Shown: positions 23,509 to 47,983 of the stretch, piece after piece
How the letters are laid out: each line of letters starts with the position of its first letter
Position numbering within the stretch: position 1 is the stretch's first letter
Program-made: the position numbers and the translations under genes
Assembly (NCBI GenBank): GCA_964617645.1
Contig: CAZTYE010000013.1
Coordinates: 3,956 to 67,955, forward strand
Direction: 5' to 3'
Length of the DNA: 64,000 bases
Origin: an uncultured Ignavibacteria bacterium
Lineage (GTDB): Bacteria; Zixibacteria; MSB-5A5; CAIYYT01
The notes under the pieces: model-generated
What the model was told of the DNA's origin: nothing
What the model saw: only the letters and a program-made list of their open reading frames with translations
Databases searched by the model: none

Positions 23509-26451
23509 ATGAGAAAGTTCGAGACGAACCAGCGATCTCGATCGCACGCCAGACGGTGGGTTGTTGCCGTCATCTATATTCTGATCTTGGGGCCGGCTTT
23601 AGAGACGGTATCAGCCCAGAATGTCCAGACTGGGCGCATCATCGGGAAGATCGTACAGAAAGAAACCGGTGAGGCCCTCATCGGTGCGGTCGTGACCGTC
23701 GAGAACACAAAACTCGGAGCGCAGTCCGACCTTGATGGAAACTACATCATCAACAACGTTCCGGTCGGTACGTACCGTCTGATCGCGCAGTCGGTTGGAT
23801 TCACGCGGATCATTGTTGAGAACGCCGCTGTCACCGCCGGTCAAGCCATGAAGATGGACTTCGCCATGCAATCGGAGGCGATTGTCGGTGACGAAGTCGT
23901 CGTCGAAGCGTCGCGTCTCAAAGACTCCGAATCCTCACTGCTCAGCTTGCGGCAGCAGGCGCCCGCCGCGCAGGATGCGATCAGCTCCGAGGCGATCTCA
24001 CGCGCCGGAGCCGGAGATGCTGCGGCGGCAATGACCCGAATTACAGGGGCATCGGTGGAAAGCGGCAAGTACGCGGTGATTCGCGGACTCTCCGGCCGCT
24101 ATTCGAGCACATCTCTGAACGGCTCTCAGCTTCCATCGACTGATCCGGATCGTCCGGCGGTGCAAATGGACTTAATGCCGACGGGGTTGCTCGACAATAT
24201 CGTCGTGCAGAAGACTTTCACGCCCGACCAGCCGGGTAATTTTTCCGGCGGTGCGGTCAATCTCAATACGAAGGACCTGCCAGAGAAGCTGAGCGTGAAG
24301 CTTTCCAGTTCGGTGTCTTACAATGATAACGTGACGTGGCGCGACGACGTCATCAGTCACAATGGTGCTTCGTCCGAAAAGTTTGGATACGACAACGGAT
24401 TTCGCGATCCGCCGGCGATCATCGCGGACTCTTCTTTCCGGGTGCCGGGCTACTCGACGGTCCGGACAAGTCCCGAAGGCGCCCGCTATCTCGATCAGGC
24501 CGCCAAGTCGCTGAGCCGCGACTTCAGTTTCAACAAGAGGTCGATTCCGCTCAATCAGGGCTATTCCCTTTCGTTCGGCAATCTCTATCAAATGTTTGAC
24601 CGCCCGCTCGGCGTGATCGGGTCGCTGACATACAATCGCAGCTACTCGTACACTCCGGACGGCGTATACCGGCGCTTCGAGACCAACGCTCAGGACGGAA
24701 AGCTGCTGGGTCTGGGGATCTTTCAGGACTACGCCGATGAAAAGGCGTCGGAAGAGGTTCTCTGGGGTGGACTATTCTCAGCCAATTTTGCGCCAAGCTC
24801 GAATCACAAGCTGCGCTTTACTTTCAATCGCAACCAACACGGCGAGAAGGTTTCCCGCCGTCTCGAGGGCCAGTACCGCACGTACACGGAATCAGAGTCG
24901 CAACTCTTGCGCAGCTACGCCTGGCAGTACACCGAGCGCTCGATGCAGGCGTTTCAGTACGGCGGCGATCACTCGTTGAACTTACCGGCTCTCAATCGTA
25001 CGCGCTTGGAATGGAATGCCAGCTTTAGCACCAACCAACAGGACGATCCGGATCTCCGCTACTGGACGGATATTGCCAATTACGATGACACCGGCGCGTT
25101 CGTCGACGCCGGCATCGTGACCGGATTTCCATTCCCGACGCACTACTTCCGCTATCTGACCGAGAAAAATCGCGAACTCAAAGCGGACTGGTCGATTCCG
25201 CTCTCCCGGAGCGGCAGTTCGGTCAAGATTGGCTCGGCGCTAATCGAAAAGTCGCGCAATCAGGACAACTGGATGCTGCGCCTGAATCCGACGCAATCGC
25301 CGCAGTTTTTCTCGAGTTACAACGGCGATCCGGCGAGCATTTTAGTCGATGACAAGCTGGGCATCGTTGACTCGACATTCGATTCGTTCAGCAACAAGTG
25401 GACTTATCGCTTCGGCATCGTGCCCGAAAATCTTTCACGCAAAACCGACACTTACAGGGGTGAGCAGAATGTTGCCGCCCTCTACGGAATGTTCGATTGG
25501 AAGTTGTCTTCCAAGTTTGACGTGATTGCCGGCGCCCGCTGGGAAGAAACCGATCAGTGGGTCGAATCGTTAGATTCATCCTCACGGGATTTCCGGGGCG
25601 CCTATGAGGTTTCCGATTGGTTGCCGTCGGTAAACTTGGTCTACCATGCGTTGCCCAACATGAATTTGCGGGGCGCTTTCAGCATCACGACCGCGCGCCC
25701 GACGATTCGCGAGATGGCGCCGTTCTACAGCTTCGAATTCCTGACCGGCAACAACAACATCGGCAATCCGCGTTTGACCCGCACGCTGATTCGCAATTAT
25801 GACTTGCGTTGGGAGTGGTTCACGCGACCGGGTGAAGTAATCGCGGTGAGCGGGTTCTTCAAGAACTTCACCGATCCGATCGAGCGGTTCAATATCTCGG
25901 ATAACAGCGACGTGAGCTTTCTGAATGTGCCCAAGGCGCAGGTTTACGGCGCGGAAATTGAATTCCGTCGCCGCCTCGACCATACCGGCATCGGACTACT
26001 CAAGCACTTTCAAATCGGCGGCAACCTGACGCTGGTGCAGTCGGAAGTTGATATCGACCCCACCGAACTGGCCTACCGCGTTGGTCGCGGCCTGCTCGAT
26101 TCGACCGAAACGAAACGCGCCTTTGGCGGTCAATCTCCCTACGTCGTCAACTTCGAGATCATCTACTCCAGTCCGAGCCGTTCGACAGAGATCGCGCTGC
26201 TCTACAATGTTTACGGCGATCGCTTGGCGGAGGTCGGTTACCGCGCGCCCGATGTTTACGAGCAGGAGCGCCACGTTTTGGATCTGACGTTGTCGCGGTC
26301 GTTGCTGGGCCTTCTGACCGCGAAGTTGACGGCCAAGAATCTGCTTAACGAAGATCGCTTCATGACGCAAGAAGCGGGCGGCACGCAGTACACCCGTTCG
26401 CTGGTGCGTGAAGGGCGATCGTTCTCACTGGGGCTGAGCTACTCGCTGTAA
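23509..26451 (+). CDS. TonB-dependent receptor with N-terminal carboxypeptidase-regulatory-like domain
   Basis: Signal peptide; GRIIGKIV..ETGEALIGA; plug motifs IRGLSGRYS and KTFTPDQPGNFSGG..NL.TK; terminal GRSFSLGLSYSL. Confidence 0.92.
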   Translation: MRKFETNQRSRSHARRWVVAVIYILILGPALETVSAQNVQTGRIIGKIVQKETGEALIGAVVTVENTKLGAQSDLDGNYIINNVPVGTYRLIAQSVGFTRIIVENAAVTAGQAMKMDFAMQSEAIVGDEVVVEASRLKDSESSLLSLRQQAPAAQDAISSEAISRAGAGDAAAAMTRITGASVESGKYAVIRGLSGRYSSTSLNGSQLPSTDPDRPAVQMDLMPTGLLDNIVVQKTFTPDQPGNFSGGAVNLNTKDLPEKLSVKLSSSVSYNDNVTWRDDVISHNGASSEKFGYDNGFRDPPAIIADSSFRVPGYSTVRTSPEGARYLDQAAKSLSRDFSFNKRSIPLNQGYSLSFGNLYQMFDRPLGVIGSLTYNRSYSYTPDGVYRRFETNAQDGKLLGLGIFQDYADEKASEEVLWGGLFSANFAPSSNHKLRFTFNRNQHGEKVSRRLEGQYRTYTESESQLLRSYAWQYTERSMQAFQYGGDHSLNLPALNRTRLEWNASFSTNQQDDPDLRYWTDIANYDDTGAFVDAGIVTGFPFPTHYFRYLTEKNRELKADWSIPLSRSGSSVKIGSALIEKSRNQDNWMLRLNPTQSPQFFSSYNGDPASILVDDKLGIVDSTFDSFSNKWTYRFGIVPENLSRKTDTYRGEQNVAALYGMFDWKLSSKFDVIAGARWEETDQWVESLDSSSRDFRGAYEVSDWLPSVNLVYHALPNMNLRGAFSITTARPTIREMAPFYSFEFLTGNNNIGNPRLTRTLIRNYDLRWEWFTRPGEVIAVSGFFKNFTDPIERFNISDNSDVSFLNVPKAQVYGAEIEFRRRLDHTGIGLLKHFQIGGNLTLVQSEVDIDPTELAYRVGRGLLDSTETKRAFGGQSPYVVNFEIIYSSPSRSTEIALLYNVYGDRLAEVGYRAPDVYEQERHVLDLTLSRSLLGLLTAKLTAKNLLNEDRFMTQEAGGTQYTRSLVREGRSFSLGLSYSL

Positions 26452-26700
26452 CGGCGGGCGCCGAACAGAACCAGAGGAACACAGAGATGTTGATGACAGC
26501 AGAAACAAGATTCCATCGACTGGTTGAACGTTTATCATACATCGTAGCACGTTTTCGTCTTCCTGGATTCCGAACTTGCTTCGCTGAGCAGCTCGGCAAG
26601 AACATGGTGCCTCGGGCATCACACGTACTTAACCCATCTACTTTCCTACAGGCAAACAACCAAACCCAAAACATGCACCGATCCTTTAAGGAGGTAACCA

Positions 26701-29700
26701 GTGCAGCGTAAGTCTCTACTGTCTCTTCTGGTGTTGTTGATGATTTCGACCGCGGCGGCGTTCGGCCAGTGTCTGAGCGAGCCGGGGCGTACTTTGGTAT
26801 TCGTGCCCGTCGGCGACATCGCAGTCAACACGCTTTGGACGAACAACAATGTCTATGTGCTGCAGGGCCCGACTTATGTCGTCAGCGGCGTCACGCTGAC
26901 GATCGAGCCGGGAACTGTGATTAAGGGCATCACCGGCCTGCCGCCGGGTTCCGTCGCGGCGCTCGTTGTCGAACGCGGTGGCAAGATTATCGCGGACGGC
27001 ACCGCCGCGCAGCCGATCATCTGGACGGCCTGCACCGACGATGTCAGTAACCCGAACGATCTTGGCCGTTCCGACCGCGGACTCTGGGGATCGCTGATCA
27101 TTCTGGGTCGCGCGCCGATCAACGGCACCGTGACTCCGCCGGAAATCTGTCCGACGGCATTGATTGAAGGATTGCCGCCGTCAGCCAAGCACACCTACGG
27201 CGGATGCGATCCGACCGACAATTCCGGCATCATTCGCTACAATCAGTTCAAGCACGGCGGCTCGATCATCGGCGCCGCGAACGAAATCAACGGGCTGACT
27301 CTCGGCGGCGTCGGCTCCGGCACGACCATCGAGTACGTCGAAGTGTTCGCGAACCTCGACGACGGATTTGAGTGGTTCGGCGGCAACGTCAACTGCAAAT
27401 ACCTCGTCTCGGCTTTCAATGACGACGATGACTTTGACTGGGACCAGGGTTACCATGGCAAGCTTCAGTTCCTGTTCGCGATTAAGGATTCGACGAACGG
27501 CGACCGGCTGTTTGAGTCCGACGGTGACGACGGCAACGCCGACACGGATCCAACGGCTCGCCCGGTCGTCTATAATGTGACGTCGATTGGTCGCGGCCAG
27601 CTTCCGAGCTCACCGTCAAATGCCAATGCGGCATTCCACTTCAAGGAGAATTCCGGCGGTCATATTCGTAATGCGATCGTGGTCGACTGGCCACGTAACG
27701 GCGTCTTTATGGAAGACCAGTCTTCCCCGTCGTTCAGCTTGACCTATCCGGACTGCGCGATCTTGACGCAAAAAGACGTGGAATACCGCAGTCGCTGCTG
27801 GACAGGATCGTACAATACGAACTTCTCGCCGGCGGCACCGGCCTACGCGAACCCGATTTTCGCAGGCGGCGCGGGCATCGGTTCCGACTTGACCATGTAC
27901 GGCGTGATCTTCTGGAACATTGGCCGCAACGCCAAGCTGCTTCCGAACGAACTCACTGCCGGTCAATCGTGGACCGAGAAGCGTCTCTTCACCGACTATC
28001 CGGCTTTGGCCGTCAGTTTGACGGGTCAAAGCTGGCGCAATGTGATCGATAACCCGCTGCTCTACGGCACAGACTTCGCGCGCTGCCGTTTTGCGGGCCA
28101 AAACGCGCTTGATCCGCGCCCGGCGCCGAATTCACCGGCGTTCACCGAAGCCCGTACCGATGCTCCGGCGGAAGATGCGTTCTTCTCGTCGGCGCCGTAT
28201 GCGGGCGCGTTTGACGCGACCAATAACTGGTTGTGTGGCTGGACGAATATTGACGATCAGAATTATCTTCGTCCGTGCGCGCCGCGTGTGACTACTTGCC
28301 TTGATGAAACCGGCAAGACGACGATTTCGGTTCCGGCGGGAGACATCAATAGAAACGTCAATTGGACGAACGAGAACATCTACGTGCTTCAGGGGCCGGT
28401 TTACGTTACCGACTCCGCGCGCATCACGATCGAGCAGGGCACGATTATCAAAGGCGTAACCGGCCTGCCGCCGGGTTCGGTGGCGACGCTTACGATCGAG
28501 CGCAATGCGCAGATTTATGCTCTCGGCGATAGCTGTTGCCCGATCGTGTTCACGGCGCAAACCGACAACGTGAATAATGCGAATGATCTGACCCGGTCGG
28601 ATCGCGGTCTCTGGGGTTCGCTGATCGTGCTCGGCAACGCGCCGATCAACGGCACTGTGACGCCACCCAATCTTTGCGCGACCAATTTCATTGAAGGTTT
28701 GACACCGTCGCCGAAGACCGAGTACGGCGGTTGCGACGCGTTCGATAACTCCGGCGTGATTAAGTGGATTCAGCTTAAGCACGGAGGCTCGATTATTGGC
28801 GCCGCGAACGAGATAAATGGTCTCACGTTGGGTGGAGTTGGTTCCGGAACCGAAGTGCACCATGTCGAAGTGTTCGCGAATCTTGACGACGGTTACGAGT
28901 GGTTCGGCGGCACGGTAAACTGTCGGTATCTGGTTTCGGCTTTCAATGATGACGACGATTTCGACTGGGACCAGGGTTACAGCGGCAAGCTGCAGTTTCT
29001 GTTCTCGATCAAGGACTCGACCAACGGCGACCGCGCCTTCGAGTCTGACGGCGACGACGGCAACGTCGACACCGAGCCGTACTCCCGTCCGATTGTCTAC
29101 AACGTGACATCTTTTGGTCGCGGCGAGGTGTTCGCTACGGCGCCGTCAAACGAAGACGCCGCGCTGAAGTTCAAAGAGAATTCCGGCGGTCACATCCGCA
29201 ATTCGATTTTCTACGAGTGGCCGCGCGGCGGCGTCGATATCGAAGACCAATCGAGCCCGTCGTTCAGCTTGGCCGCGATTCCCGATTGCGCGGTGCTGAC
29301 GCAGATCGATTGCGAATATCATAGCCGCTGCGAGACCGCTACGTTCACTAACCCGAACTGGGTTGGTGGCTATAGCAACACCAATGCGGCGTACGCGAAT
29401 AGCAATCTCTCGATCTACGGCACGTTGTGGTGCGCGATCAACGCGGCCGCGATCACCCCGAGTATCGTCGCACGCAGCCAGAGCTATACGGAACAGCGTC
29501 TCTTCACCGACTACCCGAGCATCGGCGGTTCGCTTGCCGGTGTGGCCGGTGGCAAGTGGGACAATCGCATAAGCGATCCGGTGTTCAAAGGCAACAAGCG
29601 CAATCTTAGCCGTTTCGCAGGCAACAACGCGCTCGATCCGCGCCCGGCGGCCGGAGAAGCAGCGTTTACGCTTCCGATCAAGGACGCCCCGGCGGAAGAT

Positions 29701-30030
29701 TCGTGGTTCTACTCGGCTCCCTATGCTGGCGCCTTCAATGCCACCAATAATTGGATGCTTTGCTGGACCGCGCTTTGGCAGGCCGACTACCTCAACGAGA
29801 ACGCGCCAGCGGCGTGCAGTGGGAAGTGCGGAGATGTCGACGGCAACGGCGCGTGGAGTATCGCGGATGCGGTATACATGATCAATTACATCTTTGCCGG
29901 CGGATCGGCGCCTTGCTCGACGCGCAATGGTGATGCCGACGGCAACGGCGCCTTGAGCATAGCCGACGCCGTCTATCTGATCAATTACATCTTCGCGGGC
30001 GGCTCGGCTCCGGCGTGCCCCTGCGTCTAA
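26701..30030 (+). CDS. Secreted protein with two tandem ~509-aa beta-helix-like domains and a C-terminal dockerin-like module
   Basis: Signal peptide; two near-identical units (GLPPGSVA.L...RGLWGSLI.LG.APING...EINGLTLGGVGSGT...DDG.EWFGG.V...DDDFDWDQGY); GGCCTGCCGCCGGGTTC recurs at 26935 and 28462; paired GD.DGNGA.SIADAVY.INYIF.GG motifs. Confidence 0.8.
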   Translation: MQRKSLLSLLVLLMISTAAAFGQCLSEPGRTLVFVPVGDIAVNTLWTNNNVYVLQGPTYVVSGVTLTIEPGTVIKGITGLPPGSVAALVVERGGKIIADGTAAQPIIWTACTDDVSNPNDLGRSDRGLWGSLIILGRAPINGTVTPPEICPTALIEGLPPSAKHTYGGCDPTDNSGIIRYNQFKHGGSIIGAANEINGLTLGGVGSGTTIEYVEVFANLDDGFEWFGGNVNCKYLVSAFNDDDDFDWDQGYHGKLQFLFAIKDSTNGDRLFESDGDDGNADTDPTARPVVYNVTSIGRGQLPSSPSNANAAFHFKENSGGHIRNAIVVDWPRNGVFMEDQSSPSFSLTYPDCAILTQKDVEYRSRCWTGSYNTNFSPAAPAYANPIFAGGAGIGSDLTMYGVIFWNIGRNAKLLPNELTAGQSWTEKRLFTDYPALAVSLTGQSWRNVIDNPLLYGTDFARCRFAGQNALDPRPAPNSPAFTEARTDAPAEDAFFSSAPYAGAFDATNNWLCGWTNIDDQNYLRPCAPRVTTCLDETGKTTISVPAGDINRNVNWTNENIYVLQGPVYVTDSARITIEQGTIIKGVTGLPPGSVATLTIERNAQIYALGDSCCPIVFTAQTDNVNNANDLTRSDRGLWGSLIVLGNAPINGTVTPPNLCATNFIEGLTPSPKTEYGGCDAFDNSGVIKWIQLKHGGSIIGAANEINGLTLGGVGSGTEVHHVEVFANLDDGYEWFGGTVNCRYLVSAFNDDDDFDWDQGYSGKLQFLFSIKDSTNGDRAFESDGDDGNVDTEPYSRPIVYNVTSFGRGEVFATAPSNEDAALKFKENSGGHIRNSIFYEWPRGGVDIEDQSSPSFSLAAIPDCAVLTQIDCEYHSRCETATFTNPNWVGGYSNTNAAYANSNLSIYGTLWCAINAAAITPSIVARSQSYTEQRLFTDYPSIGGSLAGVAGGKWDNRISDPVFKGNKRNLSRFAGNNALDPRPAAGEAAFTLPIKDAPAEDSWFYSAPYAGAFNATNNWMLCWTALWQADYLNENAPAACSGKCGDVDGNGAWSIADAVYMINYIFAGGSAPCSTRNGDADGNGALSIADAVYLINYIFAGGSAPACPCV

Positions 30031-30137: not shown

Positions 30138-30155
30138 TTGCGTAAAATTTCACAA
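30138..30155. promoter_or_regulatory. Rex-type operator (2 mismatches)
   Basis: TTGCGTAAAATTTCACAA versus consensus TTGTGAA-N4-TTCACAA. Confidence 0.5.
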
Positions 30156-30208: not shown

Positions 30209-30237
30209 TTGACAAGGCTGCGCCCGTTGATTAATTA
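30209..30237 (+). promoter_or_regulatory. Sigma70-type promoter of the HybAB-like operon
   Basis: TTGACA (30209-30214), 17-nt spacer, TAATTA, in an AT-rich intergenic region. Confidence 0.5.
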
Positions 30238-30268
30238 TGCTCCGAGAGATGTTTACGTGCGTCGGTGA

Positions 30269-30286
30269 TTGTGAAAAAAATCACAA
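30269..30286. promoter_or_regulatory. Rex-type operator (1 mismatch; also fits CRP-type TGTGA-N6-TCACA)
   Basis: TTGTGAAAAAAATCACAA between the promoter and the start codon. Confidence 0.7.
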
Positions 30287-30319: not shown

Positions 30320-31228
30320 TTGCCGATGACGAATACTCGACGAGAATTGTTCAAATGGGCAGCCGTCGGCGCGGTAACCGCTGTTGCCGGGCGAGCCGAG
30401 GCCAAGGAAGAGGAATTCCCTCTCGATTGCGCGCAAACGTACGGCGTACTGGTTGATACGGTCGTCTGTATCGGCTGTCGCAAGTGCGAGTGGGCGTGCA
30501 ACAACGAGCACAAACTCTCGAATACCGATCTCAAGACATTTGAAGATCGCACGGTTTTCCGAAAGCATCGCCGGCCGACGGACCAGTCGTATACGGTGGT
30601 CAATGAGTTCCGCAATCCGGCCACTCAAAAGCCGTACACGATGAAGGTCCAGTGCATGCACTGCAACCACCCGGCCTGCGTGTCCGCCTGTATCGTCGGC
30701 GCCTTGACCAAGAGCAATTCCGGCTCGGTGGATTATGATGCCTGGAAATGTATCGGCTGCCGGTATTGCATGGTAGCCTGCCCGTTTCAAGTGCCGGCAT
30801 ACGAGTACAGCGAGGCATTCAAGCCGCGGGTGATGAAATGCACCTTCTGCGCCCACCGCTTGGCCGAAGGCAAAAAGCCGGCGTGTGTGGGCATCTGCCC
30901 CAATGAGGCGTTGACGTTCGGGACCCGGCAGGAATTAATCGAAATCGCCAAAGAGCGGATCAAGATCAAGCCGGATGTTTACTATGACCATGTCTACGGC
31001 GAAACGGAGGTCGGCGGCACCAGCTGGATGTACCTGGCGCCGGTCGAGTTCAAGCACACCGAGCTGCCGACTTTGGGCGAGAAGCCGATTCCCAAGCTAA
31101 CCGAGACGATTCAACACGGCATATTCAAGTCGTTCGTTCCGCCGCTGGCACTTTACGGCTTATTGGGGCTGGTCATGTACTCGCTGCGCGAGAAGGATGA
31201 GAAGGAGTCGCACAATGAGCACGCATGA
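30320..31228 (+). CDS. Tat-exported 4Fe-4S dicluster protein (HybA/HmcB-like)
   Basis: Twin-arginine TRRELFK; Cys clusters CIGCRKCEWAC, CMHCNHPACVSAC, CIGCRYCMVACP and KCTFC...PACVGICP; EVGGTSWMYL; C-terminal TM anchor. Confidence 0.9.
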   Translation: MPMTNTRRELFKWAAVGAVTAVAGRAEAKEEEFPLDCAQTYGVLVDTVVCIGCRKCEWACNNEHKLSNTDLKTFEDRTVFRKHRRPTDQSYTVVNEFRNPATQKPYTMKVQCMHCNHPACVSACIVGALTKSNSGSVDYDAWKCIGCRYCMVACPFQVPAYEYSEAFKPRVMKCTFCAHRLAEGKKPACVGICPNEALTFGTRQELIEIAKERIKIKPDVYYDHVYGETEVGGTSWMYLAPVEFKHTELPTLGEKPIPKLTETIQHGIFKSFVPPLALYGLLGLVMYSLREKDEKESHNEHA

Positions 31229-32468
31229 AATTCCGGCCCCGATTCAGCGCGTTCCGTTTTTCACCAAGGGCACGATTATCCTCTCGATCTTGGCCGGACT
31301 CGGGATTTCCGCCTACATCTATAGATTGCTGTTCGGACTGGAAGCCGCGACCAACCTCGACGATCAATTCCCGTGGGGCATCTGGATTGCGATTGATGTC
31401 GCTTCGGGTGTGGCGCTGGCGGCCGGCGGATTTACCAGCGCGGCACTCGCCGACATTTTTCACAAAGACAAATACCACGTGATCACGCGGCCGGCGCTTT
31501 TGACGGCGATGCTGGGATACACGTTTGTCGTGATCGGCCTGCTTGCGGATCTGGGACGCTATTATAATGTGTGGCACCCGATGCTTCCGAGCATGTGGCA
31601 AGGCAATTCGGTGCTGTTCGAAGTCGGCATGTGCGTGATGGTTTATCTGACCGTGCTGTATGTCGAGTTCCTGCCGATCGTGGCGGAGCGATTTATCGGT
31701 CGTGTCAAACTCCCCGGAATATTGCGCGTTTTCAATAGTCTGGTCGACGGCTGGCTGCGAGTCTGCAAGCAGTTCCTCGGGCGATTCCTGTCGCTGTTCA
31801 TCATTGCCGGTGTGGTGCTCTCGTGTTTGCATCAGTCGTCGCTGGGAACGTTGATGGTGATCGCGCCGACAAAAATGCATCCCCTCTGGTGGTCGCCGAT
31901 CTCACCGCTGATGTTCCTGTTGTCGGCGATTGCCGTCGGTTTTCCGATGGTGATTTTTGAATCACTGGTGGCGTCGCGCTCGTTCAAACTCAAGCCGGAG
32001 ATTCCGGTGCTTTCGTCGATCGCGGCCTACACGCCGATTCTTCTGGGGGTCTACCTCGCCGTGAAGATAGGCGATTTGACGATGCGCGATGCGTGGCCGT
32101 TCCTGTTCGAGGGTTCGCTGCAGTCGTTCATGTTCATGATCGAAATCGGCCTGGGCGTGATCGCGCCGCTGTTGATGCTCGCCAATCGCAAGCTGCGACA
32201 AACGGCGAAGGGGCTGTTCATCTCGGCGTCGCTGGTGATCTTTGGCGTGCTGCTCAATCGCATCAATGTCTTTCTTGTCGCCTACGAACCGCTGTATCCG
32301 CAAACGACATACTTCCCTTCGGTGTTCGAGATCATGGTGACGGTCGGACTGGTCTGCGCATTGGTGCTGGTGTATCGGTTCCTGGTGCTCCATTTCCCGG
32401 TGATTGCGCAACCGGCTCATGAAGTGAAGGCCGACAATCCGTCGCCGGCAATCGTAAAGACGGCTTAG
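31215..32468 (+). CDS. NrfD/PsrC-family membrane subunit (HybB/HmcC-like)
   Basis: TNLDDQFPWGIWIAIDV..GVALAAGGF, DLGRYYN.WHP, SVLFEV..C and LHQSSLG; about 10 TM segments. Confidence 0.9.
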   Translation: MSTHEIPAPIQRVPFFTKGTIILSILAGLGISAYIYRLLFGLEAATNLDDQFPWGIWIAIDVASGVALAAGGFTSAALADIFHKDKYHVITRPALLTAMLGYTFVVIGLLADLGRYYNVWHPMLPSMWQGNSVLFEVGMCVMVYLTVLYVEFLPIVAERFIGRVKLPGILRVFNSLVDGWLRVCKQFLGRFLSLFIIAGVVLSCLHQSSLGTLMVIAPTKMHPLWWSPISPLMFLLSAIAVGFPMVIFESLVASRSFKLKPEIPVLSSIAAYTPILLGVYLAVKIGDLTMRDAWPFLFEGSLQSFMFMIEIGLGVIAPLLMLANRKLRQTAKGLFISASLVIFGVLLNRINVFLVAYEPLYPQTTYFPSVFEIMVTVGLVCALVLVYRFLVLHFPVIAQPAHEVKADNPSPAIVKTA

Positions 32469-32483
32469 GTGGAGGTGGATGAA

Positions 32484-33602
32484 GTGAAGAAATATACATC
32501 GATTGCATTCAATGTCCTCGTAGCGTTGTTGCTCAGCGGATCGATATTCGCGCAGAGTAAGCCGAAGGCGGTCAATTGCAGCGAGTGCCATACGTGCCCG
32601 TCCCCGACAGTGGCGAACCCGTGTTTGAAAGCTTGTCCACGAGCGCAGGCGGTTCACCAAGCAACCAAGCACGAAGTCGCCGATGCGCCGGACTCGATGC
32701 TGCTCGGCGACATCGCGGATTTGTATCAACCGGTGCATTTCAATCACAAGCTGCATGCGTCGATGGCGCAAATGGGCGGTGACTGCGCGACGTGCCATCA
32801 CTTCAGCCCACCGGGAAGAATCCCGCCCTGCAAGGAGTGCCATAGCCCGTCCGGTGAATCGAGCGATCTGCGCAAGCCGAACCTCAAAGGCGCCTATCAC
32901 CGCCAGTGCCTGGCCTGTCACCGCGAATGGAGCCATGAAACGCAGTGCGTGCTTTGTCATATTCCTTCGGAAGGCGGCGCGATTGCGCAGTCGGCCAAGG
33001 ATCCGACGGATATCATCGGCACACCGCACCCGAAAATCGTCGCGCCGGATAAGCGGCTGTACACGACGCCGTACAAGCCGGGACCGATGGTGACTTTTTA
33101 TCATGAAGAACACATTCAGCTTTTCAATCTGCGCTGCGTCGATTGTCACAAGCAGGAGAACTGCGGCTCGTGTCATGACATGAAGCGCGAAGTGAAAATC
33201 GCCAAGACGCAGGAAGAAGTGCACGCGATCTGCAACGATTGCCACAACAAGGACGCCTGCGCCAAGTGCCACGACACCAAGGAACGTTCGGCGTTTTCGC
33301 ATGCCGACACCGGTTGGCCGCTCAGTCGTTTCCATCAGAAGCTTGAGTGCCGCGCGTGTCATCCGACGGGCAAGAAGATTGCGCGCTTGAACAATAACTG
33401 CTCCGGTTGTCACGGCGGTTGGAACCAGGCGAATTTCAAGCATGCAATTGTCGGTTTGCAGCTTGACGAAGTGCATATCGAGCTGGAGTGCAGCGACTGT
33501 CACGAAAACAAGAATTTCGCGGCGACGCCGAAGTGCGACGGTTGTCATGATGACGGCCGCACGCACAAGGATGCGCCGCCGGGCGAATTGATCCGCAAGT
33601 AG
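32484..33602 (+). CDS. Multiheme cytochrome c, cytochrome c3-like, 13 CxxCH
   Basis: Signal peptide; 13 CxxCH counted; c3-type V.F.H..H and AYHRQCLACH; GGAGG RBS before GTG at 32484. Confidence 0.9.
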   Translation: MKKYTSIAFNVLVALLLSGSIFAQSKPKAVNCSECHTCPSPTVANPCLKACPRAQAVHQATKHEVADAPDSMLLGDIADLYQPVHFNHKLHASMAQMGGDCATCHHFSPPGRIPPCKECHSPSGESSDLRKPNLKGAYHRQCLACHREWSHETQCVLCHIPSEGGAIAQSAKDPTDIIGTPHPKIVAPDKRLYTTPYKPGPMVTFYHEEHIQLFNLRCVDCHKQENCGSCHDMKREVKIAKTQEEVHAICNDCHNKDACAKCHDTKERSAFSHADTGWPLSRFHQKLECRACHPTGKKIARLNNNCSGCHGGWNQANFKHAIVGLQLDEVHIELECSDCHENKNFAATPKCDGCHDDGRTHKDAPPGELIRK

Positions 33603-33628: not shown

Positions 33629-33666
33629 AGCCGCCGGGGATTGACTTTTCCGGCGGCTGCTTTTTT
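33629..33666 (+). terminator. Intrinsic terminator
   Basis: AGCCGCCGG...CCGGCGGCT stem followed by GCTTTTTT. Confidence 0.8.
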
Positions 33667-33777
33667 GTAAACCAAAATCGGCAGGGGGAAGTGATTCACA
33701 CGATTTTTCGAAATAGCGATTGACAAATCGACGATAGTGACGTCATATTGTTAAGGTCAATCTTGGAGAGGAAAACT

Positions 33778-36015
33778 ATGCGGGCGATACGAATTGTCGC
33801 TGTGACTCTGGCGTTGAGCCTTCTGGCAATCGCGCCGGGGAGTTTGGCCATCGAATTCGAGCACGTGGCGTCGATTCATTTGGGGAGTCGGTATCAGAAG
33901 ATCGTCGAGCGAGACGGCTACTGGTACTTGGCGGGCGAATGGGGGCTGGAATGCTGGCGGTTCAATGAGCAAGGGGAGTTTATCCGGCTGTCAGAGGTTG
34001 CTACCCCGGGCATCGCGCAGTGGGTGGCTTTGGAAGGCGACTACGCTTATGTCGCCGACGGCTGGGAGGGGCTCACGATAGTGGATGTTTCGGACCCGAA
34101 CAATCTGCGGTTTGTTAGCAACACACAACCGAGTGGATTCGATGGTGCAGACTACGCTGATGAAGTCTCCTACGTCTGTGTGAGCAATGGAACGGCTTAC
34201 TTAAGTGGTAGACATGGGGTCATCGCGGTCGATGTGTCGAACCAAGTACTGCCGATCCCAGCGATTAGGTTGTCCTATCCAGATCCTGATGCCGATTTGA
34301 TAAGCACAACGGGGATGACGCTGCGATTGGGACAGCACCTTTGGGTTGCTCGTGCCGATGCGCCATTTCACGGTGACACAACCTTTTTCGGCATCTATCA
34401 ATATGATCTCGCAAACCCTAACTACCCCACCTATGTTGGCTACTATCCGACCGCATTCTACTCCCCGAGATTCTTAGCGGTTCAGGATTCGGTACTGTAC
34501 GTAGCAGGCAATTGGGCTTTGCATTCGTACCGCTTGCTGCCAAACGGTGGGCTCGCTGCGCTTGATTCGCTAATTGATCTGCTCTTCATGATCAGCGACC
34601 CGCAGGACATTGCCATGGAAGACGGCACTCTCTATCTTGCCGGCCGGGGGAGCCCCACGACCGGTGGAATCGCCGTAGTTGACATTCTTGACCCCGCAAA
34701 CCTGGCGATCCGAGAAATAAGTCGGCAGATGAAGAAATTCAATTGTCTTGCGAGTAATGGCTCAGAGGTGGTAGCCGGCAGATGGGATAACGATCTGCTG
34801 ATCCTCAATCGAGGAATCGACGGCTTCTTGGATTCGACGCAGTTTATCGAGACGTCATCGCAAGCCCGCGACTTGGTCCAATCCGACGACTTCCTCTACG
34901 TCGCGGATAAAGAGAAAGGCGTTTTGTGCTTCGACCTGTCGACTCCGACCATTCCTCAGCAATGTGAAACACTCAACTTAACTTCTCCAGTTTGTATCGA
35001 TTACATGGGTACACGCCTTCTCGTCGGCCACGAAACATCGTCATACCTCAAAGTCTACGATTGTTCAGAACCGTCAAACCCGAAGATCGTTGACTCATTG
35101 CTGCTCGAAACGGGCACTACGCCGTCGGCGCTGACCCATCGAGATAGCGTCTTGAGAATCTGTTCCGGAAGACTGCACACGGTCGTCAGTTCCGAGGGTG
35201 AGTATAAACAGCTCAATCCGGTATCGGCGCTTCAAGCGGTCGCAGTTGCAACAAACTCCGAATTTGTCGCTACACCTCGTTCACTTTTTGCGATCCAGCC
35301 CGATGTGAGCATCAGTCACGTCGCCGACTTTGGGAACGTAGGTTATCCAGTCACCGGGATTGCGCTCTGCGATAGCCTGATTTATACGGCGGATTGGTTC
35401 CAAGGACTGGGAGTGTTCCGTGTCAACGGCAGTTCGAACGTGGAATTCGTTTCGAGGTGGGACACTGTTTCGAGCTCCGGTTATCCGGGCAGCGCGAACG
35501 ACGTTTGCATCTTCAGCGATAGCCTTTTGCTTCTTGCGCATGGCGAACTTGGGATCGAGATCATTGACGTTGCAGATCACACTAATCCGCGGCACACGGG
35601 CCGCCTGCCGACTTCGGCCTACGCGCAAGCGTTATCGCTCGGCCCAGAGTATCTTTGCGTCGGCGACTTGTTGGGTGTAGAGGTGTTTTCACACGACGGT
35701 CTCATCGCTGTCGATGATGCGGAGGATCCGCTCCCCAGAGAATTCAAACTGCATCAGAATTACCCAAATCCATTCAACTCTTCCACGGTATTGAGTTTCG
35801 ATGTCTTTAGCGCGGCGGAGATAGAGCTTGAAATCTATAACACTTCGGGGCAAGCAGTGGGCCGGCTCGCTTCTGCGCCATACCGCCCAGGCAGCTATGA
35901 AGCGCAATGGAATGGGACCGACGGGCACGGAAAGGAGGTGGCCAGTGGTGTATACTATGCACGTTTGAGATCAAATCATCAGTTACAGACAGTAAAGCTC
36001 ATCATAGTTCGTTAG
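33778..36015 (+). CDS. LVIVD-repeat beta-propeller protein with C-terminal T9SS type A/FlgD-Ig sorting domain
   Basis: Signal peptide; repeats such as YAYVADGWEGLTIVDVSDP and LYVADKEKGVLCFDLSTP; tail FKLHQNYPNPFNSST...WNGTD..G..VASGVYYARL. Confidence 0.85.
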   Translation: MRAIRIVAVTLALSLLAIAPGSLAIEFEHVASIHLGSRYQKIVERDGYWYLAGEWGLECWRFNEQGEFIRLSEVATPGIAQWVALEGDYAYVADGWEGLTIVDVSDPNNLRFVSNTQPSGFDGADYADEVSYVCVSNGTAYLSGRHGVIAVDVSNQVLPIPAIRLSYPDPDADLISTTGMTLRLGQHLWVARADAPFHGDTTFFGIYQYDLANPNYPTYVGYYPTAFYSPRFLAVQDSVLYVAGNWALHSYRLLPNGGLAALDSLIDLLFMISDPQDIAMEDGTLYLAGRGSPTTGGIAVVDILDPANLAIREISRQMKKFNCLASNGSEVVAGRWDNDLLILNRGIDGFLDSTQFIETSSQARDLVQSDDFLYVADKEKGVLCFDLSTPTIPQQCETLNLTSPVCIDYMGTRLLVGHETSSYLKVYDCSEPSNPKIVDSLLLETGTTPSALTHRDSVLRICSGRLHTVVSSEGEYKQLNPVSALQAVAVATNSEFVATPRSLFAIQPDVSISHVADFGNVGYPVTGIALCDSLIYTADWFQGLGVFRVNGSSNVEFVSRWDTVSSSGYPGSANDVCIFSDSLLLLAHGELGIEIIDVADHTNPRHTGRLPTSAYAQALSLGPEYLCVGDLLGVEVFSHDGLIAVDDAEDPLPREFKLHQNYPNPFNSSTVLSFDVFSAAEIELEIYNTSGQAVGRLASAPYRPGSYEAQWNGTDGHGKEVASGVYYARLRSNHQLQTVKLIIVR

Positions 36016-36026
36016 GGGAGGTCACT

Positions 36027-37696
36027 ATGTGGTGCCTAACTCGTGGCATCGGCTTGGTCTTGGCAGCATTGACGCCGGTGTTGAGCAGTGATGCTTCAGC
36101 CCAGACTGAGTCAAAACTGCTGCAAGGCAGAGCTTCTGTGTTATTCACGTTCGTTCCAGTAGTTCAAAGCGGGGCAAACAGCATAAGCGTCGGCGAGCCC
36201 TCGATCGATTCTCTGCTGCAAAAGTTTGGCGTACAGGATATGCGCGCGGTATTCGCGCGACCGGGTGATCCGAAACACCTTGCCGTTTATCAGCGTCTTG
36301 GCATGGATCGAGTTTTTGAAATTCGATTCGACTCAATGAATACAGTGACTTCAGTCGTTGAGGAGTTCGCCCTGAACCAACTGGTCGAGTTCGTGGAAGC
36401 GGTGGGAATTGTTGACGCCTACGACATATCACCGGGAGATGAGAATTTCGCCGATCAATGGTATCACTCGCAGCCGAATGATGTGGACCTGGACTCGCCG
36501 GGTGCATGGGCGTTCGATACGACAATGATTCTGACGAAAATCGCCGTGATTGACGCGGGGATAGACTCGCTGCATCCGGAATTGCGTCCGAATCTCTGGA
36601 AGAACCAAGGAGAATTCATTGGCAATCCGCCATTGCCAACGCAGGACGGGCTGGACAATGACGGAAACGGCTATGTCGACGACATATTTGGGTGGGATAC
36701 AGGGGAGCTTGACGGTGATCCTGTACCGGGTTATCGTCGACTGGGCCAAGACTGCAGCCGGATTGACTGGTTTCACGCGCATGGATCGCGGATCGTTGGT
36801 CCGCTGATGTCGGTCGACAACAACTTCTTGGATATAATTGATCAGAATATTGTGGGTGTCATCTGGCACGGTTCGATCATAAACGTGAAGTGCCTATCGG
36901 ACGCCGGTGCGGCCAGCGCCAATACATTAGCTGCGGGAATCCAATACGCTGCCGATGCCGGAGCGGAGATAGCGAGTATAAGCCGCGGCTATATTGGCTC
37001 GATAGGAACGCTTGGAATGGCTGTTAACTACGCCGACGCGCTCGGCGTTGTCATGGTCGCCGCTGTCTCATACGACACGTCCGCCGAAGGTTATCCGGCA
37101 GGCGACATTCCTTGATCAGCGTCGGCGCGATAAGCCCGAACGGAGCCATAGCGTTTGATCACATCGCATTTGACACTTCTGCAGTCGTGGCGCCTGGATC
37201 TGAAATACTGACAACAGAGGCCCCGGTTGATGTGTGCTTCGAGACCACACACACGGTGCGCGCTGGAACATCGTACGCTACTCCGATGGTCGCCGGTGTG
37301 GCTGGCATAGCGATGGGGCGACGTTGGATGCTGACGAATTCTCGGCCAACGGCGCACGACATTCGTCAGGTCATTTGGAATGCTATTGACGATCAGACTC
37401 ACCCAACGGATCCGCACGGCTTCGATCCGCTTTATGGTCGCGGCCGAGTGAACTTCGAGAAGGCGATCTACGCGGTCAGTCGGGGCGATGTCGACGACAA
37501 TGGCTCTTTGTCAATTGCGGATGCCGTCTACCTAAACAACTGGATTTGGGCGGGCGGTCCGGCTCCGAAGCCGAAGATCGGGGTCGGCGATTGCGATTGC
37601 AGCAGCAACGTGTCGATGAGCGATGTCGTCTATCTTGCCAATTACATCTTCTCCGGCGGACCGCCGCCGAAGATTTGCTTCAATTTCAATTATTAG
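36027..37696 (+). pseudogene. S8 subtilisin-family protease with C-terminal dockerin-like module, frameshifted at ~37111
   Basis: IAVIDAGID (Asp) and HGSRIVG (His) lie in frame 1, which stops at 37115; GTSYATPMVAG (Ser) and the dockerin lie in 37112-37696. One extra base after ATTCC restores YPAGDIPLISVGA. Confidence 0.8.
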
Positions 37697-37906: not shown

Positions 37907-38746
37907 GTGATTACACGCATCAAAATCGGGTTGTTGACGCTGCTGGCGGGAATCGCGTTTTACTACTTTGGTCGGGGCTTGCCGGATGGGAGGGCGGATT
38001 TCGAGAAGGGGCATCCGCATGAAGAGGTCAATTGCGAGTTGTGCCACAAGTTCGACGGCAACATGCGCGGCTTTGGCGTGAGCGTGGCGCGCAACGCGAT
38101 GTGCCTGACTTGTCACACGACGGCCAAGCTTCATGATGTCAAACTGCGTTCGTTCCACGCGGCGACGACACCCAATTGCAACGAGTGCCACAGTTTTCAC
38201 GCGCCGAGCCGGGTGATTGCCAACGGCGACACGACGACGATGGCGATCGTGGCTGGCCTCGACGAGATTTGCGCGGACTGTCACAACAATCCGGGTCGGC
38301 CGGTGGTGTCGGTCGGTCATGAGGCGGCGGCGCGATTAATTCACGGATCGCTCGATCCGGCCTGGGTGGCGCAGCCGTCGCAATACTGTATGGCGTGTCA
38401 CGACGCGGACGCCGCACCGCGTGGTGATGCCAATACCGGGCAGGTGACGCCGAGGATCCACACGGTCGGCGGCCACGCGATTGGAATTCCATTGATTCCC
38501 GGCTTTCAGCGGGCGGGTGCGGACAATAAGATCCGCGATCAGATACCCGAGTTCGTCCGTACGATCAACGGAAATATCGAGTGCCTGACCTGCCATTCAC
38601 TGAGTTCGGGCAGCGCGTTCCTGCTGGTGACCGGGCACCAGAACGACTTGTGTAACGGCTGCCACAATGTCGATCCGAACATTCCAGAAACAAGGCCACC
38701 GGTCTTCACTCAGCGTTCAGCGAACGGCGACCGGGTGCGTCCGTAA
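37907..38746 (+). CDS. Multiheme cytochrome c, 7 CxxCH, N-terminal membrane anchor or signal
   Basis: CELCH, CLTCH, CNECH, CADCH, CMACH, CLTCH, CNGCH; the last pair has the doubled-CXXCH pattern. Confidence 0.85.
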   Translation: MITRIKIGLLTLLAGIAFYYFGRGLPDGRADFEKGHPHEEVNCELCHKFDGNMRGFGVSVARNAMCLTCHTTAKLHDVKLRSFHAATTPNCNECHSFHAPSRVIANGDTTTMAIVAGLDEICADCHNNPGRPVVSVGHEAAARLIHGSLDPAWVAQPSQYCMACHDADAAPRGDANTGQVTPRIHTVGGHAIGIPLIPGFQRAGADNKIRDQIPEFVRTINGNIECLTCHSLSSGSAFLLVTGHQNDLCNGCHNVDPNIPETRPPVFTQRSANGDRVRP

Positions 38747-38892
38747 AAACGACCACGATATCGACCTTTTCGATAGATTTTAATGTAGACCTTACTGGTC
38801 GATTCTGCATTTTGTAACCCACTGTCGGGCTGTCAGATAGTTTTCTCAAGATAGTAGACATTAACTTTCTTCAGGGGAATCGAAAATATCCC

Positions 38893-38928
38893 TTGACAAG
38901 CAGACTAATCTTGTTACCTTTTTCACAA
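38893..38928 (+). promoter_or_regulatory. Sigma70 promoter with extended -10 overlapped by a Rex-type operator
   Basis: TTGACA (38893-38898), 16-nt spacer with TG, TACCTT; operator TTGTTACCTTTTTCACAA at 38911-38928. Confidence 0.7.
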
Positions 38929-38969
38929 TCTTAGACGCGCCGCTTAGAGCTATGGCGTTGTGAGGCAAT

Positions 38970-39494
38970 ATGAAACGGATAATGACCGTACTTGTGATAG
39001 GGGCAATCTTCTGGGCGGCTACCGAATCCTTCGCCGGCGAAATTTCCAAAGACAGCACTTTTAGATCCGACACACTGACGGCGCCGCTTCCGGGCTGGAA
39101 AGTCGGAATCGACTCGACCAATATCAAGGATACAACCTCGTTTTTTGTTATCGAGACCCGACACAAGGTTTTCGGGAATTTCCGGCAGGTCGACACGGTC
39201 AGGTTTGGAAGGCAATTCGAGTTGGGTGAAGGCGAAGAAGTGGCGGTGGTGATGGCCTTCAATCCGCACTTGGCGATTTCGACGAAGGGCACGGCGATTG
39301 CGTTTTCGGACACGCTCTGGAATCCGGCGGCGCGAGTGCGCGTTCTCGACAAGAGCGGAAAGGTCATCCAAGAAGGCTGGGCGTTTCACTACACCGACGC
39401 GCCGCACTACCCGCGCAACCACCTGTTTGGATTTCGATTGCTGGCCTACAAAGTAGACTCACAGTTTATCATTCCCCCGGTTGAGAAGAAGTAG
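38970..39494 (+). CDS. Secreted hypothetical protein, possibly ResB-subdomain/DUF2155-like
   Basis: Signal peptide; FNP...NPAARVRV...EGWAF segment recalls a periplasmic region of ResB-type proteins (by memory, not aligned); first gene after the promoter. Confidence 0.55.
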   Translation: MKRIMTVLVIGAIFWAATESFAGEISKDSTFRSDTLTAPLPGWKVGIDSTNIKDTTSFFVIETRHKVFGNFRQVDTVRFGRQFELGEGEEVAVVMAFNPHLAISTKGTAIAFSDTLWNPAARVRVLDKSGKVIQEGWAFHYTDAPHYPRNHLFGFRLLAYKVDSQFIIPPVEKK

Positions 39495-39509
39495 TTATCG
39501 GAGGCCTTC

Positions 39510-42500: not shown

Positions 42501-42704
42501 ATACAAGGCTTGTGTCTCGGCTGTCATGAAGACGCCAAGAAGTCGCATTTTCATCCGATGGGCGATAGTGTCATTGATCCGCGCACCAAGACGCCGGTGA
42601 ACTGCGTCAGTTGCCACTCGGCACACTCATCCGACTGGCCATCGATGCTGGTTGCCGATAAAAACCGCAAGTTGTGTGTACTGTGCCACGACGTCAGCCA
42701 CTAA
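39510..42704 (+). CDS. Very large periplasmic multiheme cytochrome c, 42 CxxCH
   Basis: Sec signal ending AQA; 42 CxxCH counted, mostly as H.P...CxxCH.PH....LL......CxxCH paired repeats. Confidence 0.93.
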   Translation: MRHGRCFGIIAHIILGVGAFLAFSSSAQAVKTCYDCHQNLKAAFEAKKVVHKPVKDNDCESCHKRHGFANTLILVDNSSELCFTCHADLKEKFAVGTKHAPMEVGKCWDCHEPHAADKKGLLRNYEGVIDDPGSCLACHGKELESALDGTVPHPPFTKLDCAACHDPHNSEHAGLLKKDVSALCADCHDPKDKKTLAAHEGKAIAGLECAECHSGHSTNSAGLMSGNSHAPFSEGQCDVCHAPVTDPAAIQFTDGKKPGELCGECHSEQVDATALAIPHAAVEKVNCDACHQPHSSRHGKLLKENQANLCGECHDDLLTGDKMVAHAPAILGDCSGCHEVHGSNKEHLLAATDSSLCLGCHGEFAVKRDSAEVVHPAIADCNGCHAPHEGHTQAILRTSPEDACRKCHEPSGADRAAESVHPPYLRSDCSACHNSHFGDEAHLVKAGGNKLCVNCHPEIGNRTTLAVQHAPAQEDCQTCHRPHTAGSDFLLAAPEGELCGQCHDRADFNGNKTFVHTPVLKGDCSGCHNPHGSMKEHLVAGRAVRMYVNGIPISKTPALGDKIADLCFTCHDDLKEKFRQGVPHTPVESGDCQVCHDPHGGDVYGMLKDEPAKVCGTCHTIDADLATKHENYDLTAANCLDCHNPHTAPEKGLMRANLHPPFAEKSCDGCHERGADGKVVMAGPEAEVCGTCHEDLLGLASKKSQHGPFAAGECTACHSPHAGDDKKFLLRAGNDLCTNCHSDIHELVNQPVQHRPFADGACVDCHGPHATDNPVLTVKAKEGFCTSCHEDIKKELASGEVHAPTKTGDCTQCHLPHAGAAPMLLAKDKQALCSGCHDYTSVAVKTAHGGFDISGADCQNCHVAHATKRGVKGLLLPNAHEPFRSGTCDQCHAGQAPLPLVAETKELCLTCHDDFAKQLAQAVVHAPILSGDCTGCHGPHVGFGKSLQVREGFKACVTCHDSREFSGSVKHPVAFEDCGNCHDPHAAPNKGLLNTTDIQGLCLGCHEDAKKSHFHPMGDSVIDPRTKTPVNCVSCHSAHSSDWPSMLVADKNRKLCVLCHDVSH

Positions 42705-42723
42705 ATGGACTGAGGGAACTCTG

Positions 42724-43611: not shown

Positions 43612-43625
43612 TTACTGAGGATCTT

Positions 43626-44579: not shown

Positions 44580-44586
44580 TGAGCAG

Positions 44587-47381: not shown

Positions 47382-47396
47382 CAACGGATAAGAGTT

Positions 47397-47981: not shown

Positions 47982-47983
47982 CC

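Follow-up and report, generated by a model that had tools for sequence, protein, structure and literature searches.

A conserved FeS-NrfD-13-heme cytochrome operon with a predicted Rex operator encodes a candidate menaquinone-pool:periplasmic-cytochrome oxidoreductase in Zixibacteria

Among genomic markers of extracellular electron transfer, inner-membrane quinone oxidoreductases are regarded as the best (PMC12977616). In sulfate reducers, NhcABCD and Hmc are CISM-type modules that consist of an iron-sulfur (FeS) protein and an NrfD-like membrane subunit, with a multi-heme cytochrome replacing the catalytic subunit (PMC8076601). The Cbc4 (CbcSTU) complex of Geobacter belongs to the same category (bioRxiv 10.1101/2025.04.14.648717; PMC13591261), and similar modules of Melioribacter and MBNT15 have been proposed to act as quinol:acceptor reductases in iron reduction (PMC9386147). 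Here we describe a three-gene module of this general kind from an uncultured bacterium that is labelled Ignavibacteria in GenBank and assigned to Zixibacteria by GTDB (assembly GCA_964617645.1). The module occupies positions 30326-33602 of a 64,000-nucleotide stretch of contig CAZTYE010000013.1 (hereafter, the window) and encodes, in this order, an FeS protein, an NrfD-family membrane subunit and a 13-heme cytochrome (hereafter, cyt13). The same window contains an osc/OmcS-like cytochrome cluster with a gene for a 42-heme protein.

We consider it fairly probable that the three genes encode one menaquinone-pool:periplasmic-cytochrome oxidoreductase complex of the Hmc/Nhc type that is controlled by Rex, oxidises quinol, sends electrons outward and is one of several parallel gates in this organism. 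The composition of the module, its conservation, natural gene fusions, conserved quinone-site residues, a conserved Rex box and co-occurrence with the osc cluster are observed; complex formation, the direction of flow and the identity of the partner are inferred. The operon comprises the following features (window coordinates).

30138-30155, no strand assigned: weaker Rex-type box TTGCGTAAAATTTCACAA, 12/14 positions, upstream of the -35 element.
30209-30238, plus strand: sigma-70-like promoter TTGACA-18-AATTAT, a consensus match only (10/12).
30269-30286, no strand assigned: Rex-type operator TTGTGAAAAAAATCACAA, 13/14 positions, about 40 nt before the start codon.
30326-31228, plus strand: ferredoxin-like subunit (HmcB/HybA-like) with four [4Fe-4S] clusters, a Tat export signal and a transmembrane (TM) anchor at the C-terminus; open reading frame (ORF) 30320-31228, also open from TTG 30320.
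31215-32468, plus strand: NrfD-family quinone-interacting membrane subunit with 10 TM helices (HybB-sister clade); likely start ATG 31215; ORF 31197-32468, also open from ATG 31197.
32469-33602, plus strand: secreted 13-heme c3-type cytochrome (cyt13); likely start GTG 32484 behind GGAGGTG.
33629-33668, plus strand: intrinsic terminator-like hairpin (33629-33658, 12-bp stem, 8 G-C) and T-run, the end of the operon.

The three genes form a single co-directional operon in which neighbours overlap or abut, the NrfD gene overlapping the FeS gene by 14 nt, and they are the three genes that lie between promoter and terminator. The cyt13 gene is translationally coupled to the FeS and NrfD genes and conserved together with them. 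No [NiFe] or molybdopterin catalytic gene is found in the operon or its flanks. The composition given in the initial annotation (a Tat 4Fe-4S protein, an NrfD-type subunit, a 13-CxxCH cytochrome and a terminator, with neither type of catalytic subunit) is thereby borne out, and its label of a HybAB/HmcBC-like module is apt, the cytochrome standing where the catalytic subunit would be.

The FeS protein, for which a start at ATG 30326 behind GAGGA is likelier than TTG 30320, begins with MTNTRRELFK, a twin-arginine motif, contains 16 Cys in four ferredoxin-type [4Fe-4S] groups and ends in a single hydrophobic TM helix. It matches Fer4_11 and, in the PDB, the beta subunit of formate dehydrogenase-N and PsrB/NrfC. 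Its best NCBIfam match is HmcB (NF045715; 329.3 bits, below the cut-off of 420), followed here by HybA (NF008134; 246.9 bits, below the cut-off of 263), to which it is 33% identical over the full length. The membrane subunit passes the gathering cut-off of the Pfam NrfD family (PF03916; 84.1 against 25.8 bits) and contains about 10 hydrophobic helices, which fits the superfamily trait of 8-10 TM helices (two four-helix bundles plus extras). Among NCBIfam models it best matches HybB (NF008133; 342 bits, below the cut-off of 450), with 35% identity to Escherichia coli HybB over the full length, and scores lower against HmcC (NF045714; 286.5 bits, cut-off 550) and QrcD (94.9 bits, cut-off 570); a PDB sequence search gave no match at E <= 0.01. 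Its residues D118, S138 and R355 align with D109, S129 and R329 of HybB, the quinone-site and proton-gate residues located, respectively, at the acidic/His position of TM helix 2, in the quinone pocket and in TM helix 8 (PMC8076601).

An exhaustive HMMER search with the NrfD subunit as the query retrieved 2516 relatives. In a maximum-likelihood tree of representatives labelled by fusion state, together with E. coli HybB and NCBIfam scores and with no named HmcC, NhcC or QrcD sequences, the subunit belongs to a clade of 18 members (SH-aLRT 97) in which NrfD is solo, fused to the FeS protein or fused to a cytochrome, and whose sister clade consists almost entirely of cytochrome fusions. Another, separate clade of 12 members (99) contains E. 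coli HybB, and two of its sampled members pass the HybB cut-off with 475 and 451 bits; no hydrogenase-type member was found among those sampled in the clade of the NrfD subunit. The phylogeny that the initial annotation had proposed thus places the subunit as a sister to HybB, outside the true HybB clade; the relation to HmcC was judged by NCBIfam score, which is below the cut-off, and no true HmcC (>= 550 bits) occurs among 10 proteins sampled from the nearest 150 NrfD representatives.

The affinity to HybA and HybB, the latter being the best NCBIfam match of the membrane subunit, bears on the alternative that the module serves as the membrane arm of a [NiFe] hydrogenase or formate dehydrogenase of the periplasm whose genes lie elsewhere in the genome. 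Against it stand both scores, which are under the curated cut-offs, whereas true HybB-clade proteins score 451-475 bits and form a clade of their own, as well as the coupling of the cytochrome gene to the module and its joint conservation. The genome, searched in full (26 contigs, estimated 100% complete), has only two [NiFe] large subunits, one following Hdr/Mvh-like and NuoF/G-like genes and the other, in a group-3-type context, following cNMP-binding and FAD/NAD-type genes, and the twin-arginine signal is absent from both [NiFe] small subunits. Molybdopterin (PF00384) matches in the genome are confined to NuoG and a 1253-aa cytoplasmic protein behind NuoE/F-like genes; no periplasmic molybdoenzyme was found in the genome. 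The search for a hydrogenase elsewhere in the genome suggested in the initial annotation thus yielded neither a hydrogenase nor a formate dehydrogenase that could partner the module, and this alternative is largely refuted and, in our view, very improbable.

Natural gene fusions tie the cytochrome to the rest of the module. Among the 125 non-fragments of the nearest 150 NrfD representatives, 46 are fusions of NrfD with multi-heme domains (3-15 hemes) and 4 are FeS-NrfD fusions, where the fusions counted are gene-called proteins with a linker TM helix. In two of these (P0123 and P0134), NrfD is joined to a 13-heme domain that has the N-terminal CxxCHxC...PC...C signature of cyt13, and an extra, eleventh TM helix sits at the position of the former signal peptide, which is the topology that a real NrfD-cytochrome fusion would require. 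By the Rosetta-stone argument, such fusions indicate that the cytochrome acts on the NrfD/FeS module. A "13-heme" ORF of the 637-771-aa class in locus L014 was rejected as a fusion: its frame differs from that of the NrfD gene, over which the ORF runs upstream. Similar ORFs in L042, L058, L059 and L061 were treated like L014 by assumption, and none of the five was counted. Four relatives (P0125, P0132, P0135 and P0138; about 1065-1096 aa in total) are fusions of a HybB-like NrfD with a c3-like docking domain and a large 12-14-heme domain which, judging by its motifs, may resemble octaheme tetrathionate-reductase-type cytochromes; this architecture suggests that the module serves several different periplasmic heme enzymes.

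The cytochrome contains exactly 13 CxxCH motifs behind an N-terminal signal-like helix. More than 1300 homologues are detected at E <= 1e-5, typically 370-400 aa long and 50-66% identical, and all 13 motifs as well as 14 further His are invariant in 67 homologues, which is enough for bis-His ligation of 13 hemes; probably all hemes of cyt13 are ligated in this manner. Residues 68-164 are similar to the C-terminal c3 domain of HmcA (1h29, 1gws; E about 1e-18) and to the C-terminal c3-like domain of the nine-heme cytochrome (19hc; E 8.5e-14); outside this region, only generic c3/c7 matches are found. Cyt13 scores 46.7 bits against the HmcA model (cut-off 400; one domain only) and 34 bits against the nine-heme NhcA (NF045784; cut-off 640; C-terminal c3 domain only), and it has no NapC/NirT (PF03264) match.

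Three additional invariant Cys of cyt13 (C43, C52 and C56) lie right behind the first heme motif, in the pattern CxxCHxCxxPTxxxPCLxxCP, and are also present in the NrfD-cytochrome fusions; possible roles include a disulfide, a metal site or a thioether. The sole version of cyt13 in the public protein collection (P0001) is a 301-aa product from Met77, without the signal peptide and two hemes, unlike the homologues, which span the full 372-377 aa.

Comparison with the described systems brings out both likenesses and differences. NhcABCD of Desulfovibrio desulfuricans, like the module, combines a multi-heme c3-type cytochrome with a four-[4Fe-4S] protein and a 10-helix NrfD-like subunit and has no catalytic or cytoplasmic subunit (PMC8076601), the membrane subunits being compared here by architecture only and not through the NhcC sequence or model; the C-terminal c3-like domain of the cytochrome is common to both. 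Unlike Nhc, the module has 13 rather than 9 hemes, the gene order FeS-NrfD-cytochrome, no NhcD-like fourth gene and an NrfD subunit of the HybB-sister clade, and it could not be fed by a periplasmic hydrogenase or a type I c3 system, both of which its host lacks. HmcABCDEF of Desulfovibrio vulgaris is the best match of the FeS protein (HmcB), is matched by the NrfD subunit (HmcC) and shares its last HmcA domain with residues 68-164 of cyt13. All three scores, however, are under the equivalog cut-offs, the hemes number 13 against 16, and the module lacks HmcD, HmcE (cytochrome b) and HmcF (cytoplasmic FeS protein) and, hence, a cytoplasmic outlet.

HybA/HybB of E. coli hydrogenase 2 is likewise a two-subunit quinone module with the three conserved quinone-site residues, and its FeS subunit also has a Tat signal and is anchored at the C-terminus; in contrast, the module described here lacks HybO/HybC, has a multi-heme cytochrome where the hydrogenase dimer would be and belongs to a separate NrfD clade. 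Qrc is more distant, given the low QrcD score, 61.4 bits for QrcC (cut-off 400), 19.2 bits for QrcA (cut-off 180) and no gene resembling that of the molybdopterin-like QrcB. Cbc4 (CbcS-CbcT-CbcU) and the modules of Melioribacter roseus and MBNT15 share with the module the proposed role of a quinol:periplasmic-cytochrome oxidoreductase for extracellular electron transfer and the combination of an integral membrane, a four-[4Fe-4S] and a c-type cytochrome subunit, but CbcS is a membrane-anchored NapC/NirT-type tetraheme protein whereas cyt13 is a secreted 13-heme c3-type protein (CbcT and CbcU were compared by description only). On sequence scores, the module falls below the cut-offs of every named family tested. 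It is set apart by a 13-heme cytochrome of its own, the HybB-sister membrane subunit, the lack of a fourth subunit and the conserved Rex box; the general concept has already been published.

CbcL, ImcH and CymA have the same proposed place, between the menaquinone pool and periplasmic cytochromes, but differ in build, CbcL being a fusion of a multi-heme c domain with an FdnI/HydC-type cytochrome b, and ImcH and CymA being of the NapC/NirT type; in this genome, such proteins are encoded separately from the module. Two tandem genes at C3:346518-351145 encode proteins with 11 hemes (674 aa) and 17 hemes (868 aa), both of which end in a cytochrome b domain of the FdnI/HydC type (CbcL-type), and the homologues of these proteins adjoin the module in RBG-1, Acidobacteria and other loci. 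The region C2:424395-429912 encodes a NapC/NrfH-like 6-heme membrane cytochrome (C2:424395-425912), an MtrA-like decaheme protein with a 13/14 Rex box 23 nt ahead of its gene, a weak MtrB/PioB-like barrel and another 6-heme protein. A second cytochrome-FeS-NrfD module at C3:218131-220857, comprising an anchored 8-heme protein, a TtrB/DsrO/NrfC-like FeS protein and an NrfD/DsrP-like subunit, belongs to another NrfD class. Alternative complex III (ACIII) and an aa3 oxidase are encoded as well. The initial annotation presented the module as a route different from CymA, ImcH and CbcL; given the two CbcL-type proteins and the NapC/NrfH-type protein, it is neither the sole nor a demonstrably separate entry on the quinol side. 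The quinone itself is menaquinone, given that the genome contains a complete menFDHBCE cluster (MenB is 76% identical to that of E. coli) and no futalosine pathway genes.

The module is conserved as a unit. A scan with one genome per species gave 80 related loci, 74 of which contain the FeS, NrfD and cyt13 genes in identical order; five of the other six are broken by contig ends, and one (L067) lacks the module. The loci come mostly from Zixibacteria, with some labelled Ignavibacteria and a few from Acidobacteria/Holophagae, Deferrimicrobium, Myxococcota, Eisenbacteria and Calditrichia. Some loci, that of the original RBG-1 genome of Zixibacteria among them, form a subgroup that pairs the same cytochrome with another NrfD lineage (34-37% identity), indicating that modules have been exchanged. 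Among 121 high-quality genomes of the phylum of the window, which represent 80 genera, cyt13 is found in 52 (about 43%) from 35 genera, always in one copy per genome. The recurrent neighbours of the module elsewhere are 11-heme and 17/19-heme proteins, each fused to an FdnI/HydC-type cytochrome b (CbcL architecture), an MtrA-like decaheme protein with a porin and a NapC/NrfH-like cytochrome; in RBG-1, the CbcL-type, MtrA-like/porin and NapC/NrfH-like genes and the module all reside in one cluster.

Rex responds to the NADH/NAD+ ratio. Scored against the 14 positions of the Rex box consensus TTGTGAAnnnnTTCACAA, the 64-kb window contains only four sites with at least 12 matches: 30138 and 30269 upstream of the module, 38911 upstream of the 42-heme operon and 49718 (14/14) before a gene for a hexaheme protein. 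A rex gene is located at C8:77230 (PF06971, 72 bits), and the genome has, in total, 17 sites with at least 13/14 matches, with 17 exact cores against 1-3 in Markov simulations. Nearly all of these sites are in promoter regions, among them those of nuo, an hdr-hydrogenase operon, sucC, an oxidoreductase and the MtrA-like decaheme operon. Of 70 related loci, 49 have a box with at least 12/14 matches in the 300 nt that precede the FeS gene, in most cases at a distance of 45-75 nt from the start codon, compared with a background of 0.0066 per equal window, and because of this conservation the module appears to be a long-standing member of the Rex regulon, the operator itself being predicted. A reading of the palindrome as a CRP-type TGTGA-N6-TCACA site was dropped, the extended consensus, the target operons and the rex gene fitting Rex better. 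The operator that the initial annotation regarded as common to the module and the nanowire cluster is indeed present at both, but it is a global Rex box of energy-metabolism operons and is not confined to this cluster.

The link to the 42-heme protein is seen in the co-occurrence of genes. Across the 121 genomes, with 42-heme-like proteins called at E <= 1e-40, 39 have both proteins, 13 have cyt13 but no 42-heme-like protein, 11 show the reverse and 58 lack both, which corresponds to an odds ratio (OR) of 15.8 (p = 5e-11), and to an OR of 16 (p = 5e-7) with one genome per genus, in both cases with kinship ignored, that is, with no phylogenetic correction. The osc-type outer-membrane barrel (window 45681-47381) is found in 18 genomes, 16 of which have cyt13 (OR 14.9, p = 3e-5). 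As a control, a CbcL-like (11-heme) protein is present in 100 of the 121 genomes and is not associated with cyt13 at the genus level.

For this link we relied on co-occurrence and rejected synteny as evidence since, in the closest relatives, no 42-heme, 7-heme, hexaheme or OmcS-like homologue lies within 8 kb of the module. The downstream neighbours of the module in the relatives are inverted homologues of window 6749-9073 and 1283-6742, which shows that the local order here is rearranged. In seven genomes of the same genus, the module is located about 32-33 kb from a split OscI/J-like cytochrome pair, on the opposite strand; in other families, the module and the 42-heme-like genes are on different contigs or hundreds of kb apart. 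The connection of the quinone pool to the 42-heme protein proposed in the initial annotation is accordingly supported by co-occurrence, and the adjacency of the two is not conserved.

An alternative explanation is that the module is a general quinol:cytochrome c oxidoreductase (NrfBCD/ACIII-like) that feeds soluble periplasmic reductases or small cytochromes and has no special tie to the 42-heme/osc proteins, the adjacency being an accident of the rearrangement just described. The module is a stand-alone three-gene unit amid housekeeping genes in most genomes, with other multi-heme genes within 8 kb in only about 9 of 52 long loci, and cyt13 is found in 52 genomes compared with 18 for the osc barrel. 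The strong co-occurrence with 42-heme-like proteins and the osc barrel (OR about 15) argues to the contrary, as do the Rex boxes, which in the window are found only at the promoters of the module and osc operons, and the lack of canonical NrfA (CxxCK) among the inspected multi-heme ORFs of the genome. A role of this general kind is, in our estimate, unlikely.

Under the preferred reading, a Rex-controlled oxidoreductase of the menaquinone pool, the NrfD-type subunit would hold the quinone site and the proton path, and the Tat-exported four-[4Fe-4S] protein would sit on its periplasmic face, with cyt13 docking through the c3-like domain homologous to the last domain of HmcA/NhcA. Electrons would move between menaquinol/menaquinone at NrfD, the four [4Fe-4S] clusters and the 13 low-spin hemes, and cyt13 would trade them with other periplasmic multi-heme cytochromes. 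Through the Rex operator, the complex would be made when NADH/NAD+ rises; menaquinol would be oxidised, and electrons would flow outward into the periplasmic and outer multi-heme network, including the neighbouring 42-heme osc/OmcS-like cluster, with the module serving as one of several parallel inner-membrane gates. Outflow through quinol oxidation is somewhat favoured over inflow because the module is Rex-controlled and tracks osc/OmcS-like clusters.

The same complex could run in reverse, as a cytochrome c:menaquinone reductase of the kind described for Nhc, Qrc and Hyd-2. Electrons from outside, supplied by Fe(II), a cathode-like mineral or a syntrophic partner, would then arrive via osc/OmcS-like wires and the 42-heme protein, menaquinone would be reduced electrogenically, and the quinol would be oxidised by the ACIII-aa3 oxidase or another reductase; we hold this scheme to be a minority possibility. 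It accords with the conserved proton-path residues of the NrfD subunit, with the presence of ACIII and an aa3 oxidase in the genome, with the quinone-reducing direction of the closest characterised relatives (PMC8076601) and with RBG-1, where the module lies inside an MtrAB-like cluster that Castelle et al. discussed as Mtr-like and possibly, in their reading more likely, Fe(II)-oxidising (PMC3903129). On the other side, passing electrons from Fe(II)/Fe(III) couples to menaquinone (about -74 mV) is energetically uphill, and OmcS/osc clusters are tied to Fe(III)-oxide reduction in Geobacter. Furthermore, Rex-derepressed genes typically have NADH-reoxidising, electron-disposal functions.

Several points weigh against quinol oxidation by the module as an outward gate. 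The characterised homologous modules (Hyd-2, Nhc, Hmc and Qrc) are described as quinone reductases, the opposite direction (PMC8076601), and nuo and the hydrogenases of this genome are likewise under Rex, which therefore leaves the direction unfixed; the opinion of the initial annotation that the direction cannot be read from sequence holds on both counts. The genome encodes other candidate quinol oxidases, namely, two CbcL-like proteins, the NapC/NrfH-like cytochrome, the second FeS/NrfD/8-heme module and ACIII. With respect to the partner, the position of the module 4-6 kb from the 42-heme/osc cluster is unique to this genome, 13 of the 52 cyt13-positive genomes have no 42-heme-like protein, and the co-occurrence statistics are uncorrected for phylogeny. 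Finally, the AlphaFold2 model of cyt13 is of low quality (pLDDT 62, pTM 0.33) and lends no structural support.

The surroundings of the module have a history of their own. The fused 42-heme gene and the osc-type barrel (37907-49532) have their best matches in other families of the phylum, with 49-53% and 33-39% identity, respectively, and in same-genus genomes the barrel is missing and the split cytochrome pair is found instead; horizontal transfer may have brought in or replaced the osc cluster, and a rearrangement, probably an inversion, brought it beside the module. Elsewhere in the genome, adjacent ORFs at C6:182892-188518 contain 20 and 52 CxxCH motifs (593 and 1282 aa), the latter exceeding the 42-heme protein of the window. 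Directly upstream of the module, 23509-30030 encodes a TonB-dependent receptor with a CarboxypepD_reg domain and an internally duplicated secreted protein of 1109 aa with a dockerin-like domain at its end; these genes keep synteny with the module in the closest relatives (58-79% identity). Between the module and the osc cluster, a subtilase (Peptidase_S8) is represented by two overlapping ORFs, 35907-37115 and 37112-37696, probably the result of a frameshift or a pseudogene.

The accepted marker set of quinone-side proteins for extracellular electron transfer, CymA, ImcH, CbcL and CbcBA, is derived from two model genera. The module described here is present in about 43% of the sampled high-quality Zixibacteria genomes and in several other phyla, its cytochrome is strictly conserved, and it tracks osc/OmcS-like clusters. 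If it is a menaquinol:cytochrome gate, it would be a widely usable marker for mineral electron transfer, in either direction, in uncultured sediment bacteria and would link this process with a simple redox sensor; for biochemistry, naturally fused NrfD-cytochrome and FeS-NrfD proteins would provide ready-made constructs. More tentatively, the module could serve OmcS/osc-type cytochrome-wire pathways outside Geobacter as their dedicated gate at the menaquinone pool, under the control of Rex. In that case, it would fill the role of ImcH, CbcL and CbcBA in Zixibacteria, scattered Acidobacteriota, Calditrichota and others through a proton-coupled HybB-like subunit, and the NADH/NAD+ ratio would switch the export of electrons, which would also be coupled to the proton-motive force or driven by it.

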